Below are positions 1 to 9,228 of a stretch of DNA of 9,228 bases, one piece after another (position 1 is the stretch's first letter; each line of letters opens with the position of its first letter). Origin of the DNA: a virus (lineage: Duplodnaviria > Heunggongvirae > Uroviricota > Caudoviricetes); IMG/VR virus record IMGVR_UViG_2526164665_000028; one strand, written 5' to 3'. The notes under the pieces were generated by a model, which saw only the letters and a program-made list of their open reading frames with translations, had not been told where the DNA came from and ran no database searches. The position numbers and the translations under genes were made by a program.

Positions 1-241
1 AGTGGCCGTAGGCCGGAAAAACTGGATGTTCGCGGGTTCCGACAGCGGTGGTGAACATGCGGCGGTGTTGTACTCGCTGATCGGCACATGCCGTCTGAAC
101 AATGTGGAGCCAGAAAAGTGGCTGCGTTACGTCATTGAACATATCCAGGACTGGCCGGCAAACCGGGTACGCGATCTGTTGCCCTGGAAAGTTGATCTGA
201 GCTCTCAGTAAATATCAATACGGTTCTGACGAGTCGCTTAC
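1..241 (+). mobile_element. IS66-family insertion sequence, right end (partial; continues left of window)
   Basis: Transposase C-terminus in frame 2 followed by a terminal sequence ending ...GAGTCGCTTAC at 231-241, the reverse complement of the GTAAGCG motif typical of IS66-family inverted-repeat termini. Confidence 0.7.
2..211 (+). CDS. IS66-family transposase (TnpC) C-terminal fragment, 5'-truncated by window edge
   Basis: Translation ...RKNWMFAGSDSGGEHAAVLYSLIGTCRLNNVEPEKWLRYV...LLPWKV matches the conserved C-terminal region of IS66 TnpC. Stop TAA at 209-211. Confidence 0.8.
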   Translation: MAVGRKNWMFAGSDSGGEHAAVLYSLIGTCRLNNVEPEKWLRYVIEHIQDWPANRVRDLLPWKVDLSSQ

Positions 242-473
242 TTAAAAGTGAGATGTCAGCGATCATTACTAAAACGGTATACACATTCCTGCGCGCAATG
301 CCCCGCCCGCCTGCCCGCTTCGCTTAACAGACTGGTTTTCATGCACCCCGTAAATCGTCTCAGAAGCCACCACACAAGGGCTTTCGCGTCAAAAATGGCG
401 CATGAGACTCATGCGTTTTCATGCGCCATAGATATGCACTCATACGCTCTCAGGCCAGCCAGGAAAAAGGCGT

Positions 474-498
474 AAAAAATCCCGGTACTGGACCGGGA
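474..498 (-). terminator. Intrinsic terminator of the sid-psu-delta operon
   Basis: Minus-strand hairpin TCCCGGT-CCAGT-ACCGGGA (7-bp stem, 5-nt loop) followed by TTTTTT, 23 bp downstream of the delta stop. Confidence 0.6.
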
Positions 499-520
499 CT
501 TCGTGGTCGTATTTTGCTAA

Positions 521-793
521 TCAGACAGGAATTTGCTGACGGTTTGACAGCTTTGACGCGGAGCCATAGCGATTGAGAGTTTGCTGTTGTTTTTCCGGTA
601 TTTTTGCTTTGTCTGATTCCTGTTCATTGCACCGAGGCTTCATAATTATCGTATCCACGCTTTCCAGTGCGGTAAATGTGCAGGAACATTCCAGATTCTG
701 GCACTGATACCATGAGCGTTTAACCGACGGAGCTTCATAGGCGCTGGTTCTGGCGTGAGCGACCGCGCCACATTCAGGACACTTCAGGGCCAT
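521..793 (-). CDS. delta: Ogr/Delta-family zinc-finger late transcription activator (single-domain)
   Basis: ATG at 793 (the longer ORF to 895 overlaps psu). Product MALKCPECGAVAHARTS...YQCQNLECSCTF has the C-x2-C-x22-C-x4-C Ogr/Delta zinc-finger spacing and the AHARTS motif. Start lies 1 nt after the psu stop. Confidence 0.8.
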   Translation of the reverse strand: MALKCPECGAVAHARTSAYEAPSVKRSWYQCQNLECSCTFTALESVDTIIMKPRCNEQESDKAKIPEKQQQTLNRYGSASKLSNRQQIPV

Positions 794-794
794 A

Positions 795-1349
795 TCAGCA
801 CACTCCTTTTTCATTAAGTCGGTTAAGGCGGGCCAGGAAAACTTTATGTTGTGCCGGGGTGAAACTGGCTGAAGCATCAGCGCGCATTGATGCATCCACC
901 GTTAATCCGGTTTCGTCGATAATGCTCTTATATGCTGCTGAAATTACCGGAGTACGCATTTCCGTTTGTCGGGCTACAGCGGTTCGTAATATTTTCATTG
1001 CCGCCTCAAGCCCGTATGGAGCGCAAAGAAAAGGAGCCAGAGCGTCAGTGAGTGCATCACCATGCTCGCTCATGAAGTTTTCCGTTGCGCTTGTAACACA
1101 ACTCTCCAGCACAATCTGATGAGCATAAAGACCATCCCGTGCAGCACAGTTAATCTGCCATTCGAGGACTGCAAGACGCTCACGAAGATCCTCAAGCTGG
1201 CTGGCATATGCTGCCGGTTTTTCTTCAGTATCCAGCAGAGCCGCCAGACGAAGCTGGTAGGTACTTTGCGTATTACGTAGTGTCAGCCAGCTTTTTATCG
1301 CCGAGCGGTAATCGTTGAGTGCTTCCTGAGTAATGGTTCCGGCATTCAT
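795..1349 (-). CDS. psu: Polarity suppression protein Psu (capsid decoration / Rho antagonist)
   Basis: 184-aa product with blocks resembling P4 Psu as I recall it (...ALTDALAPFL..., ...SFTPAQHKVF...). ATG at 1347-1349 overlaps the sid stop (ATGA). Confidence 0.8.
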   Translation of the reverse strand: MNAGTITQEALNDYRSAIKSWLTLRNTQSTYQLRLAALLDTEEKPAAYASQLEDLRERLAVLEWQINCAARDGLYAHQIVLESCVTSATENFMSEHGDALTDALAPFLCAPYGLEAAMKILRTAVARQTEMRTPVISAAYKSIIDETGLTVDASMRADASASFTPAQHKVFLARLNRLNEKGVC

Positions 1350-2098
1350 TTCTTCTCGCCCCCTTTAACCATGTCACGCTGTTTAAGCATCCGTGAACGC
1401 GCTGCAGGGCTGGGGGATTGTCTGGCATCCTGGATGGCTTTATCGTCCGCATAAATGCTGATCCCCGGCAGGGTAATATCATCGGTTGAAGATACGTTAC
1501 AGGACAGTGCCGGAGTGGTGAGTTGCTCGCTGATAAATTGCTTCAGCACACTTTCGGGGTCGTTTACGGTATGAACTACACCGATAACAGCAGAAGCGCT
1601 TCGGCCCAGAGTCATTTTCAGCAGTCCAAGGATCTGAATAAGTTTCTGACCGTGTTCCTTCATAAACTCATTCCAGAGCCACACTGCATGAGTTTCAATC
1701 AGGCGATTATGTTCGCTGATGTAGTGGTTTGCAGCATCCGCAGTTTTCCAGGGCAGGAATTCATTTTCTGCCGCCTGAGCTGCCAGCAAATCTTCGAACT
1801 CATCCAGTGTTTCGCGTCCGAGGGCGATTTCTGCCCGCAGTTTTTTCATGCGTGGCGTCATATTTCCCTGATTCTCACGAAACAGGTTTCGCCATTCATC
1901 ATTAAGCGCCTGCGTTTCCGTTTTTGTATCTTCCTGACGTTTACGGATAGTTTCAATCATTGCAGCAGCTTCAGTTTGTTTTCGTCGTTCTTCCTGCCAG
2001 ACAGCTTTTGCTGCCTTAACTTTATCCACCGCTTCGCGAATTTTCGGTGGGAGGGAGGGTGTAATGTTTGCATCAGGGATCTGGTTAACAGTAGTCAT
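1346..2098 (-). CDS. sid: Sid-like capsid size-determination (external scaffold) protein
   Basis: 250 aa from ATG at 2098, preceded by GGAG 6 nt upstream. The longer ORF to 2131 starts with TTG and has no SD. Size and position (first gene of the leftward late operon, upstream of psu) match P4 sid; coiled-coil-like composition. Confidence 0.75.
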   Translation of the reverse strand: MTTVNQIPDANITPSLPPKIREAVDKVKAAKAVWQEERRKQTEAAAMIETIRKRQEDTKTETQALNDEWRNLFRENQGNMTPRMKKLRAEIALGRETLDEFEDLLAAQAAENEFLPWKTADAANHYISEHNRLIETHAVWLWNEFMKEHGQKLIQILGLLKMTLGRSASAVIGVVHTVNDPESVLKQFISEQLTTPALSCNVSSTDDITLPGISIYADDKAIQDARQSPSPAARSRMLKQRDMVKGGEKK

Positions 2099-3338: not shown

Positions 3339-3367
3339 TTTCCCGCTGCCGCAAAATCGGCTGCCGG

Positions 3368-3395
3368 GCGTAGGAACCCGAGTTACTTATTGGCG
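3368..3395 (+). promoter_or_regulatory. seqA-like bipartite target for the CI-like antisense RNA
   Basis: Half-sites GTAGGAAC (3370-3377) and CTTATTGG (3386-3393), complementary to TTCCTAC (3545-3551) and CCAATAAG (3529-3536) on the same strand. Confidence 0.5.
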
Positions 3396-3400
3396 ACACC

Positions 3401-3423
3401 AGACGCGCCGTGCGTCTTTTTTT
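3401..3423 (+). terminator. Intrinsic terminator-like hairpin in the immunity leader
   Basis: AGACGC-GCCGT-GCGTCT perfect 6-bp stem followed by TTTTTT. Confidence 0.5.
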
Positions 3424-3487
3424 ACGTCGTTGCTCAGGCACACCCATTTTTCGGGCTGCGGTGCTTATACCTTAGCCCCTTTCAGAT

Positions 3488-3572
3488 AATGGTGGTCCGG
3501 GCGGGGCAGCCTTCGGGCTGGCCGGTTTCCAATAAGGCCGGTATTCCTACCCCCGTTCGGGTCACCACCCAT
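3488..3572 (+). ncRNA. CI / C4-type antisense immunity RNA (boundaries approximate)
   Basis: GGTGGT (3491-3496) pairs with ACCACC (3564-3569) as a terminal stem; internal UUCG-closed hairpin CAGCC-TTCG-GGCTG (3507-3520); exposed region 3526-3552 carries the two blocks complementary to the upstream and downstream targets. The only ORF here (3571-3813, alternative frame) is likely spurious. Confidence 0.5.
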
Positions 3573-7060: not shown

Positions 7061-7082
7061 TGCGAGTCCGGCCTTCGCACCA
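7061..7082 (+). other. att core: 3'-terminal fragment of a tRNA-Leu (leuX-type) gene, probable attR / right boundary of the satellite
   Basis: TGCGAGTCCGGCCTTCGCACCA matches the T-loop/acceptor 3' end of E. coli tRNA-Leu(CAA) as I recall it (TTCGAGTCCGGCCTTCGGCACCA) with two differences. No 5' half is present, so this is a duplicated integration-site fragment, not a tRNA gene. Confidence 0.55.
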
Positions 7083-7615: not shown

Positions 7616-8440
7616 ATGATAAAGCCATTTTCTGTGAGGTATGGTCATGTTGACGTTAGAGAGCATGTCCAGCTGAATGATCTTAATTCTGATACACGCA
7701 TGGCATTGTGGAATTGCTTATATCTTTTCCTTTGGACTAACAATCGTCAAACTGCTACAGCAACAAAATGTGCGCAGTCTGTGTGGATATATTATCTAAA
7801 TCAACCTGCGGATAATATTCCTCGTTATGAAAGTGGATACAAAAGTGATAAGACGTTGCTGACTGCTATCCGAGATTATATATATGGGGAAGCATGGTAT
7901 TTGGTATATGATTTAATTGAGTTCATCATTGAGAGAACTAATTCATATATTAATCTATCGAAGCATCTCAATTCCATCTTTAAAAAGCATGGCGTTGGTT
8001 ATACCATAATAAATGGTTGTATTACTCCTATTTCAAATGATAACGAAATTGAAAGTGTTCAGAACGCAGTTGATAATGGCACTGATTCATCGCGTAGCCA
8101 TTTCGAAAGGGCGTTACAACTAATGACGGATAGAGAGCAGCCAGACTACAGAAACTCGATTAAAGAGTCTATCTCTGCAATTGAATCTTTATGCAGGAAA
8201 ATCACGGGCAATGATAAAGGAACCTTGGGGGCTTGTCTTAAAGCTATAGAGGAAAAAGGATATATACACTCTGCAATGAAAGGCGCTTTTAGTCAGCTCT
8301 ATGGTTATACAAGTGATCAGGGTGGAATACGTCATGCGCTAACAGAAGAAGATGTAAATCCTACCTTAGCTGAAGCTAAATTTATGTTAGTCACTTGCAG
8401 TGCGTTCAGTAATTATCTGTTGTCAAAAATAAGTGATTAA
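7616..8440 (+). CDS. Hypothetical protein, tentatively AbiJ-like abortive-infection protein (HEPN/Abi_C-like C-terminal region)
   Basis: 274 aa; GGGGAAG upstream of ATG 7616; stop TAA at 8438-8440. Strongly AT-biased codons. N-terminus MIKPFSVRYGHV...ALWN and C-terminal ...YGYTSDQGGIRHALTEED... recall AbiJ-N/Abi_C proteins, but this is from memory of motif patterns only. Confidence 0.55.
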   Translation: MIKPFSVRYGHVDVREHVQLNDLNSDTRMALWNCLYLFLWTNNRQTATATKCAQSVWIYYLNQPADNIPRYESGYKSDKTLLTAIRDYIYGEAWYLVYDLIEFIIERTNSYINLSKHLNSIFKKHGVGYTIINGCITPISNDNEIESVQNAVDNGTDSSRSHFERALQLMTDREQPDYRNSIKESISAIESLCRKITGNDKGTLGACLKAIEEKGYIHSAMKGAFSQLYGYTSDQGGIRHALTEEDVNPTLAEAKFMLVTCSAFSNYLLSKISD

Positions 8441-8488: not shown

Positions 8489-8964
8489 TTATTCACCAGA
8501 CTCTAATCTTTTTTCTCTTTTCTCATCTCTCCTTTTTATTGCCAAATCGTGTTGCTCTTGCAGATACGTGCGTTCTTCGTTTCTATCGCTTGAAGTATAT
8601 ACGTCTGCTTTTACTTTTTTAGCTCCTTGTGCAATAGGTTTCCAATCCTCTCTTATACCTTTAATTTGTTCTGCAATTTGCGTCAATGGGCTTCTCGCTC
8701 CTAGATAACTTATTCCTTCAAATGTCGCCATGTCATACACATATTCATTTGTTTCTCTATCGTTTGATTTAGGTTTGCTTGCCCAGCTTATATTAATATT
8801 ATAAATTTGATCTTTGATTTGTTCATACTTACAGAGATTGCTGGTAAGTGATTGCCCATTTTTTAACACGCTTACCTTACTAAACGGAATCTCACTTTTT
8901 TCTCTATGCTCCGCATTTACTAGTGGAGGATCAAACACAACCTCAACATTATAGGCAGGTGAGG
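8489..8964 (-). pseudogene. Hypothetical protein, 5'-truncated by IS3-family insertion (remnant ORF; first ~44 codons of the 8489-9097 ORF are IS-derived)
   Basis: The ORF reads in frame across the IS terminus at 8965. Downstream of the junction the first in-frame ATG is far inside the ORF; only a GTG at 8936-8938 with a close GAGG is available. AT-rich composition like the neighbouring gene. Confidence 0.5.
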
Positions 8965-8975
8965 TGTACTGGCAA
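8948..8975 (-). promoter_or_regulatory. Hybrid outward promoter at the IS3 junction
   Basis: On the minus strand, TTGCCA (IS terminal repeat, 8970-8975), 16-bp spacer, TATAAT (flanking DNA, 8948-8953), reading into the truncated gene. Confidence 0.4.
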
Positions 8976-9228
8976 TAGCGGACACTACCATTTGTTCTTT
9001 TTTTAAGCAGCCATCTGATGATATTTTTCCCTGAAGGCTGCCGGGGAGATATTCCCCAGACGAGAGTGACGACGCTGACGATTGTAGAAAATCTCAATGT
9101 ATTCCCGTATTACTGAGATGGCTTCATCCCGGTTATTAAAACGATAGTGGCTCAGGCTCTCATTTTTCAGCGTTCCCCAGAAGCTTTCCATCGGAGCGTT
9201 GTCGTAACAGTTACCTTTACGCGACATT
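8965..9228 (-). mobile_element. IS3-family insertion sequence, terminal part (continues right of window)
   Basis: Terminus TGTACTGGCAATAGCGGACAC at 8965-8985 resembles IS3-family terminal inverted repeats (TG end, CAATAGxGGACAC block); the transposase C-terminus lies just inside it. Confidence 0.7.
9003..9228 (-). CDS. IS3-family transposase OrfB C-terminal fragment (integrase catalytic core end)
   Basis: ...GNCYDNAPMESFWGTLKNE...RDEAISVIREYIEIFYNRQRRHSRLGNISPAAFREKY is the conserved C-terminal region of IS3-family OrfB; stop TAA at 9003-9005; 5' end beyond the window. Confidence 0.8.
   Translation of the reverse strand, partial: MSRKGNCYDNAPMESFWGTLKNESLSHYRFNNRDEAISVIREYIEIFYNRQRRHSRLGNISPAAFREKYHQMAA

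Follow-up and report, generated by a model that had tools for sequence, protein, structure and literature searches.

The window analyzed in this study, i.e., the whole 9,228-nucleotide stretch of the Caudoviricetes record IMGVR_UViG_2526164665_000028, opens with the end of an IS66-family insertion sequence, and the locus raises the question of whether this element disrupted, displaced or delivered neighboring accessory genes or was simply inserted between intact neighbors. In P4-like satellites, the region between psu/cos and int represents a variable defense hotspot (Rousset et al. 2022, PMC9122126). The sequence-only reading of the window had placed the IS66-family element in this hotspot, about 280 bp from the delta stop codon, and had suggested that cargo might have been disrupted or displaced and that a novel system would most likely be located to the left of the window.

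Identity, ends and copy number of the IS66-family element

Over its first 1,400 bases, the window was found to be 100% identical to many EHEC chromosomes, including that of E. coli O26:H11 11368 (NC_013361.1), and 41 kb around the latter match were fetched for analysis of the flanking regions (termed L001; window position = L001 position - 20,000). In the annotation of NC_013361.1, the stretch covers the 3' end of a gene for an 'IS66-like element ISCro1 family transposase', which is preceded by tnpA and tnpB and followed by delta and psu. Window positions 1–241 represent the right end of a complete IS66-family element of 2,699 bp featuring the gene order tnpA-tnpB-tnpC (ISCro1 family according to PGAP). 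The last 69 residues of the IS66-type transposase are encoded at window positions 2–211 in frame +2 (Pfam DDE_Tnp_IS66_C, E 2.7e-17). Complete TnpC harbors the domains DDE_Tnp_IS66 (E 2.5e-103), zf-IS66, LZ_Tnp_IS66 and DDE_Tnp_IS66_C and scored 478 bits against the NCBIfam model transpos_IS66, for which the cut-off is 180. Furthermore, tnpA encodes a protein of 225 aa (HTH_Tnp_1) and tnpB one of 115 aa (TnpB_IS66, E 4.7e-40), and all three open reading frames (ORFs) of the element are intact.

The left end of the element, starting with GTAACCGGCTC, was located at L001 position 17543 and its right end, terminating in GAGTCGCTTAC, at window position 241. Read as the reverse complement, the right end starts with GTAAGCGACTC and pairs with the left one, and the resulting terminal inverted repeats are imperfect, about 24–27 bp long and start with GTAA. 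Moreover, perfect 8-bp direct copies of TTAAAAGT border the element on both sides (L001 17535–17542 and window 242–249); for such a repeat, the chance of occurrence at fixed positions is p about 1.5e-5. Members of the IS66 family are characterized by terminal inverted repeats beginning with GTAA and by an 8-bp target-site duplication (ISfinder), and both traits were reportedly described by Han and colleagues in 2001. A DDE transposase, tnpA and tnpB upstream of tnpC, GTAA ends and the 8-bp duplication were all observed here, and the copy is complete and apparently functional.

A query including the IS end had matches at about 10 sites of the O26 chromosome and in 2,560 of the 5,426 complete E. 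coli genomes, and the junction segment containing the 241-bp IS end was found in 1,716 E. coli records at an identity of at least 99%. The element is an ordinary and common EHEC insertion sequence that is already annotated in RefSeq. Its assignment to the IS66 family in the sequence-only reading was borne out by the agreement of Pfam matches, RefSeq annotation and ends; the distance given to the delta stop codon is exact (241 vs. 521), and the target-site duplication that was to be sought at the other IS end is present there as a perfect copy.

The surrounding P4-like satellite and its boundaries

From left to right, L001 carries tRNA-Leu, int, the genes for a 279-aa 'MltR family regulator' and a 528-aa hypothetical protein (both on the minus strand), tnpA, tnpB, tnpC and the minus-strand genes delta, psu and sid. 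To the right of sid, genes for HTH/vis, Icd/Ash, DUF5375, the alpha primase and an AbiJ-NTD4 protein, a truncated ORF and IS600 follow. Thus, as proposed in the sequence-only reading, the IS lies inside a P4-like satellite on its cos/delta side, within the variable psu/cos-int hotspot, and int and tRNA-Leu are located further to the left. The genes int, psu, delta, sid, alpA/vis, epsilon/ash and alpha are co-localized, and integration occurred at a tRNA gene with att repeats; P4-like elements have been defined by core components of this kind in an approach of the SatelliteFinder type (bioRxiv 10.1101/2021.03.30.437493). A Phage_ASH domain (E 8.8e-33) and a primase domain were also identified. 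Features of the locus are compiled in Table 1.

Table 1. Features of the IS66-bearing satellite, its hotspot cargo and cargo homologues. Positions refer to the window unless a locus record is named.
Feature	Position	Strand	Description
IS66-family (ISCro1-like) right end	1–241	+	tnpC C-terminus, codons 2–208, stop 209–211; right terminal inverted repeat about 215–241, ending in ...GAGTCGCTTAC
Target-site duplication TTAAAAGT, right copy	242–249	.	Left copy at L001 17535–17542, outside the window
Cargo-cassette-specific leader	242–290	.	Common only to elements with the same cargo; homology to other-cargo P4-like elements from about 291
Equivalent of the 55-bp cos core	290–344	.	GCGCGC 291–296 ... 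GGTTTTCATGCA 334–345; predicted by alignment to P4 ends and RE-2010
Terminator-like hairpin CGCATGAGTCTCATGCG, then T-run	399–415	-	Downstream of delta; L003 14466–14450; perfect 11-bp inverted repeat
delta	521–793	-	Ogr/Delta zinc-finger late-gene activator; Pfam Ogr_Delta E 1.3e-16; PHROG 603; 43% identity to P4 delta
psu	795–1349	-	Polarity suppression / capsid decoration; Pfam Psu E 1e-35; PHROG 6366 E 6e-72; 28% identity to P4 Psu
sid-like	1346–2098	-	Capsid size determination; PHROG 6165 E 9.6e-94; weak Pfam Psu match
isrK	3345–3422	+	Rfam, 72 bits; upstream of Ash/Icd-like ORF
C4 antisense RNA (P4 CI-type)	3485–3572	+	Rfam, 83 bits; upstream of Ash/Icd-like ORF
attR core (GCGAGTCCGGCCTTCG-CACCA)	7062–7082	+	Repeat of the tRNA-Leu 3' end with 1-nt deletion; right satellite boundary
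528-aa cargo protein (P0001)	L001 15720–17306	-	Hypothetical protein; predicted N-terminal PD-(D/E)xK (DUF4365/DREN-like) nuclease fold
279-aa cargo protein	L001 14742–15581	-	RefSeq 'MltR family transcriptional regulator'
P2-like-prophage homologues of the 528-aa protein	L007 9001–10602; L011 6001–7578; L013 6001–7587		
Erwinia P4-like element homologue of the 528-aa protein	L006 9001–10587		85% identity

Compared with their P4 counterparts, identities of 95% (Int), 73% (alpha), 64% (vis), 70% (orf106), 43% (delta) and 28% (Psu) were determined. The product of delta has a length of 90 aa in RefSeq, and the mechanically delimited ORF extends to position 895. PHROG 6165 was taken as the P4 sid family because it is a Psu-like family distinct from the one matched by psu. 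The hairpin downstream of delta likely marks the end of the sid-psu-delta late operon, and the predicted isrK and C4 RNAs fit a P4-type RNA immunity region.

The left attachment site, attL, corresponds to the 3' end of tRNA-Leu (L001 13050–13072). Its counterpart attR was found by k-mer matching; a search permitting up to 4 substitutions missed it because of a 1-nt deletion (CTTCG-CACCA in attR vs. CTTCGGCACCA in attL), which is also present in the IS-free relatives described below. Full-length identity to IS-free satellites ends at attR, and the right flank differs in one of them, SJC33. Delimited in this way, the satellite comprises 14,033 bp with and 11,326 bp without the IS; the P4 genome has a size of 11,624 bp.

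The gene for the AbiJ-NTD4 protein (window 7616–8440, plus strand; Pfam E 5.8e-27; PADLOC candidate PDC-S32, E 5.6e-104) was considered as satellite cargo and rejected because it is located outside attR. At the AbiJ position, SJC33 carries an HNH endonuclease gene and part of a gene for phosphorothioate-DNA restriction, so that the DNA immediately beyond attR is a second variable spot. The minus-strand ORF at window 8489–9097 is annotated as partial in O26, where its N-terminus is missing and IS600 is directly adjacent (from about window 9003); in CAU16175, it is intact and encodes 190 aa.

A putative cos site adjoins the hotspot boundary

In P4, the cos sequence at which the DNA is cut measures 55 bp (PMC2231350). 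Alignment of the P4 end sequences to the window revealed no net length change between GCGCGC (291–296) and GGTTTTCATGCA (334–345). The 19-nt P4 cohesive end aligns to window 298–316, where 12 of 19 positions are identical and 7 differ from P4/P2. A short cos-centered query yielded weak matches (78–79%) to P2-family phages in the phage collection, among them the P2-like Salmonella phage RE-2010, in which the match falls into the portal-adjacent region and is separated from the portal gene by an AIPR cargo gene. Window 242–900 searched by BLAST against the same collection in distant mode gave no match. By these alignments, window positions of about 290–344 are clearly homologous in sequence to P4 cos and to the cos-proximal region of RE-2010, and they constitute a putative cos site related to those of P4 and P2-family phages. 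Among the phage-collection matches whose cos-side stretch was aligned, the cohesive-end equivalent resembles that of the Fels-2-like RE-2010. Moreover, a 13-nt direct repeat, GTTTTCATGC(A/G)CC, was noticed at window 335–347 and 415–427.

The low identity of Psu to its P4 counterpart as compared with Int, together with the divergent positions in the cohesive end, indicates that the satellite is a mosaic, and the satellite may depend on a different P2-family helper than P4 does.

A total of 870 genomes matched the stretch queried across the hotspot boundary, and only 4 of these cover at least 80% of it, i.e., the empty site plus the cargo leader. Among the matches listed, those to P4-like elements with other cargo start at query positions 437–453, corresponding to window 285–301 and most often to 291. 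Since the other-cargo matches stop at about 291, the boundary between backbone and hotspot abuts the cos core, and window 242–290 belongs to the cargo cassette. In this respect, the IS is useful in that it places the edge of the hotspot no more than a few bases from the cos core.

Two predicted nuclease genes form the hotspot cargo

GC contents separate three distinct modules lying side by side, namely the cargo (L001 14500–17000; 29–34%), the satellite backbone (45–52%) and the IS (55–58%). For neither of the two cargo proteins was a match obtained with PADLOC.

The 528-aa protein was not assigned significantly to any family in Pfam, PADLOC, PHROGs or NCBIfam, and a sequence profile search of the PDB gave no match. 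Among PDB structures, Foldseek ranked the DREN-APAZ subunit of SPARDA first (E 8.9e-5, with a TM score of only 0.18–0.23). Distant homologues match DUF4365, which is the nuclease domain of SPARDA (DREN), just below the Pfam threshold (24.1 vs. 24.3 bits). Residues D37, E41, Q64 and K66 are invariant. An exhaustive profile search recovered 1,996 cluster representatives at 50% identity, which are mostly 510–540 aa long and were matched end to end, and 10 sampled family members gave no PADLOC match and reached DUF4365 only with sub-threshold scores. According to these profile and structure comparisons, the protein belongs to a large, uncharacterized family with a predicted nuclease fold of the DREN-like type at the N-terminus, followed by approximately 400 C-terminal residues rich in beta structure.

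Homologues featuring 50–75% identity are encoded beside the portal gene, in the cos-adjacent gpA-portal hotspot of P2-like prophages, in Cronobacter and on two metagenomic contigs, and an Erwinia P4-like element carries a further homologue (Table 1). Occurrence in both P2-like and P4-like elements shows that the 528-aa gene is common to the cos-adjacent hotspots of helpers and satellites. In Lonsdalea, the homologue stands alone. No Argonaute gene was detected beside the gene in the E. coli, Erwinia, Cronobacter, Lonsdalea and metagenomic loci examined, which indicates that the cargo is not a SPARDA system; neighborhoods of distant family members lie on contigs too short to be informative.

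The 279-aa protein matched Pfam MtlR (E 6.9e-8) and DUF4145 (E 3e-3) as well as MtlR chains in the PDB, and scored 38 bits against NCBIfam MltR, for which the cut-off is 149. Its motif R93-N94-x-F96-x-H98 (RNKFSH) is invariant in 22 diverse homologues. The HEPN superfamily includes both MtlR and DUF4145, and RNase activity has been predicted for some members of the MtlR family (Anantharaman et al. 2013, PMC3710099). The 279-aa protein is therefore interpreted here as a HEPN RNase candidate and not as a mannitol regulator, and its RefSeq name is probably a misleading over-annotation.

The HEPN gene accompanies only P4-type copies of the 528-aa gene. An obligate partnership of both genes was considered and rejected, as the HEPN gene is absent beside the homologues in P2-like phages and Lonsdalea. 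In Erwinia pyri, a remnant of the HEPN N-terminus (17 aa, 82% identical; L006 10774–10824) was observed just downstream of the 528-aa homologue and beside an integrase fragment; the remnant is a trace of a two-gene arrangement that was broken there.

A literature search retrieved no paper mentioning the cargo or genome accessions. WP_000091133, WP_000356577, NC_013361 and MtlR were not found within the portion of the Rousset et al. 2022 supplementary tables (PMC9122126) covered by the search; the same portion lists IS66 TnpA and TnpB proteins with accessions identical to those of the present element (WP_001339397, WP_000624622) in another hotspot entry, NZ_CP025859. The intact cargo pair, whose larger gene is common to P2 and P4 hotspots, lies outside the window and represents a modest lead and a reasonable candidate for defense-system screening.

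The IS66-family element was inserted cleanly into a non-coding leader

The pre-insertion site was rebuilt from 300 bp of left and 300 bp of right flank with a single copy of TTAAAAGT and searched in 5,426 complete genomes. This 600-bp empty site was found with 100% identity in three genomes (CAU16175, EPSSH018 and PEC240) and with 99.8% identity in SJC33. Two of these IS-free genomes, CAU16175 and SJC33, were inspected and show the order int, MltR-like gene, 528-aa gene and delta, with no other gene. After removal of the IS, the O26 satellite (11,326 bp) is 99.86% identical to that of CAU16175 and 99.78% identical to that of SJC33 over its full length. The IS-free copy of SJC33 resides in another chromosomal context with different neighbors on both sides. 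Conversely, the IS-cos-delta junction is present in 105 genomes, which, among the matches listed, are O26, O103 and O111:H11 strains. A single origin of these 105 IS-bearing alleles was assumed from the identical junction. The distribution of IS-bearing and IS-free copies fits reduced mobility of the satellite.

Between the IS and the cos core lie 49 bp, and the cohesive-end equivalent and the delta stop codon are 56 bp and 280 bp away from the IS, respectively. On the other side of the IS, the start codon of the 528-aa gene follows 236 bp downstream, and the insertion site is thus part of a 507-bp intergenic leader. At these distances from the cos core, the delta stop and the cargo gene, neither an ORF nor the cos core was interrupted, and the IS-bearing genome retains both cargo ORFs in intact form. 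The presence of the same cargo at 99.8–99.9% identity in IS-free relatives implies that the IS neither disrupted, displaced nor brought in the cargo. A simple, clean insertion of the IS66-family element into a non-coding leader, with the consequences considered below, is very probably the best explanation, and no evidence contradicting it was found.

The other readings of the locus were weighed against the same data. IS elements often cause adjacent deletions, and strain War has indeed lost DNA beside this very IS copy, so that truncation, disruption or replacement of hotspot genes next to the element had to be considered. This is very improbable here given the perfect 8-bp duplication, the exact empty site in 4 genomes, the intact cargo ORFs of the IS-bearing genome and the IS-free satellites inspected, which contain the same two cargo genes only and show near-complete identity from end to end. 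The suggestion of the sequence-only reading that cargo was disrupted or displaced is refuted by the duplication, the empty site and the identity of the whole satellite to IS-free relatives. Delivery of the AT-rich cargo genes by the IS itself, through composite or one-ended transposition, could be argued from the foreign composition of the cargo and its direct adjacency to the element; it is scarcely credible in view of identical cargo at the identical place in the inspected IS-free genomes, a duplication that flanks the IS alone, and the occurrence of the 528-aa gene in P2-like and P4-like hotspots devoid of this IS. For a position of the IS outside or at the edge of the satellite, with the satellite ending before position 242 or int following without cargo, no support was found: tRNA-Leu/attL is followed by int, both cargo genes, the IS, cos, delta to alpha and attR, Int is 95% identical to that of P4, and the probability of this reading is practically nil. 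Examination of the upstream sequence as far as int and the tRNA gene, which the sequence-only reading had recommended, established that two cargo genes lie between the IS and int and that the satellite extends between tRNA-Leu and attR (7062–7082). Its expectation of a novel system to the left of the window holds insofar as two intact, unstudied nuclease-type genes are located there; that they form a novel system is plausible and unproven.

An effect on cargo expression deserves more weight than these readings and is nevertheless unlikely. In this case, the insertion would split the cargo promoter or supply a new one and silence or re-wire both nuclease genes. On its minus strand, the leader contains only one sigma-70-like match (-35 CTGACA, L003 14310–14305; -10 CATGAT, 14288–14283), which straddles the target octamer at 14293–14300, and after insertion its -35 hexamer is replaced by IS-end sequence. 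However, this match is weak (9 of 12 hexamer positions) and occurs at chance frequency, two matches having been found vs. 1.1 expected in shuffled sequences, and 236 bp of native upstream DNA remain in front of the cargo. The intactness of the cargo ORFs in IS-bearing genomes speaks neither for nor against an expression effect. If the promoter reading were true, it could explain the tolerance and fixation of a potentially toxic cassette in the lineage.

Proposed course of events and consequences for the satellite

Under the favored explanation of a clean insertion, one copy of the multicopy IS66-family element would have transposed once, by ordinary cut- or copy-and-paste, into the AT-rich octamer TTAAAAGT and generated the 8-bp duplication. 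The target would have been the 507-bp non-coding leader between cos and the defense-type cargo of an 11.3-kb P4-like satellite residing at tRNA-Leu (leuX). Subsequently, the resulting allele would have been inherited within the EHEC O26/O103/O111 group (105 genomes). By parting the leader from its cos-proximal 49 bp, the IS might also alter cargo transcription, a suggestion made with low confidence.

By the insertion, the satellite grew from 11.3 to 14.0 kb, i.e., by 24% relative to the IS-free element and to a size 21% above that of P4. The cos core is intact in the IS-bearing allele. An upper packaging limit for the capsid of this satellite was not found in the literature consulted. Heads of P2 size can also accommodate P4 genomes. 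The median size of P4-like elements is 10 kb, with very few being larger than 15 kb (bioRxiv 10.1101/2021.03.30.437493); furthermore, engineered P4 payloads have been designed up to the native genome size (PMC12239096). The larger satellite would probably be impaired in packaging into the small P4-type capsid, which would favor chromosomal fixation of the satellite together with its cargo.

A later stage may be represented by strain War (NZ_CP074717; L014 4847–16900), in which tRNA-Leu, int, the cargo and the left IS junction are identical. War lacks cos, delta, psu, sid and alpha, and the DNA right of the IS instead holds genes for an inovirus Gp2-family and a zinc-ribbon protein as well as a second IS66-family element. 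As War retains the cargo and has lost all of the backbone right of the IS, this IS copy served as a rearrangement point. The IS could accordingly act as a portable substrate for homology or transposition that erodes the satellite, as in War. The IS-bearing and IS-free alleles, being 99.8–99.9% identical, provide a clean dated marker. The allele pair is suited to the question of whether approximately 2.7 kb beside cos immobilize a satellite and start its decay to a fixed island, with War as the next step.

A more far-reaching reading combines insertion and cargo. In this scenario, the IS landed in the leader of an undescribed two-part anti-phage cassette, consisting of a solo DREN-like nuclease with a beta-rich domain, from a family of about 2,000 clusters outside PADLOC that moves between P2 and P4 hotspots, and, in P4-type copies, of an MtlR-like HEPN RNase with intact active site; oversizing by the IS would then have locked the cassette into the EHEC O26/O103/O111 chromosome. 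As a whole, this combination is tentative and somewhat doubtful. If it were true, the IS insertion would mark one stage on the way from a mobile satellite to a domesticated, fixed defense island.

Comparison with known systems

The cassette occupies the same place as the hotspot described by Rousset et al., which holds gop-beta-cII in P4, namely between the cos site on the late-operon side and int, and its cargo is likewise transcribed away from cos. Here, too, backbone homology with elements carrying other cargo ends at the cos core, and a variable cassette between cos/late operon and int is found in otherwise homologous elements. P4 itself (NC_001609) is arranged in the order sid-delta-psu, 164 bp, cos, gop-beta-cII and int, and its psu gene faces cos. 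In contrast, the satellite analyzed here features the order sid-psu-delta, so that delta faces cos; a swap of the sid-psu-delta type was reported for 20% of P4-like elements (bioRxiv 10.1101/2021.03.30.437493).

With respect to the cargo, the 528-aa protein differs from the DREN-APAZ subunit of SPARDA in that the short prokaryotic Argonaute partner is missing from the neighborhoods examined and a sequence-level PDB match is lacking; any likeness of its C-terminal 400 aa to APAZ would be tentative at TM scores of only 0.18–0.23. The 279-aa protein shares with HEPN proteins the Rx4-6H motif with a polar residue after the arginine. It differs from the MtlR families by its location outside a mannitol operon and by a C-terminal extension of approximately 130 aa.

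The insertion sequence itself corresponds to the IS66 family (ISCro1-like) in its length class of about 2.7 kb, its GTAA repeats and its 8-bp duplication, with nothing notably different. Its sole specific feature at this locus is the target, the leader of a satellite defense cassette 49 bp from cos.
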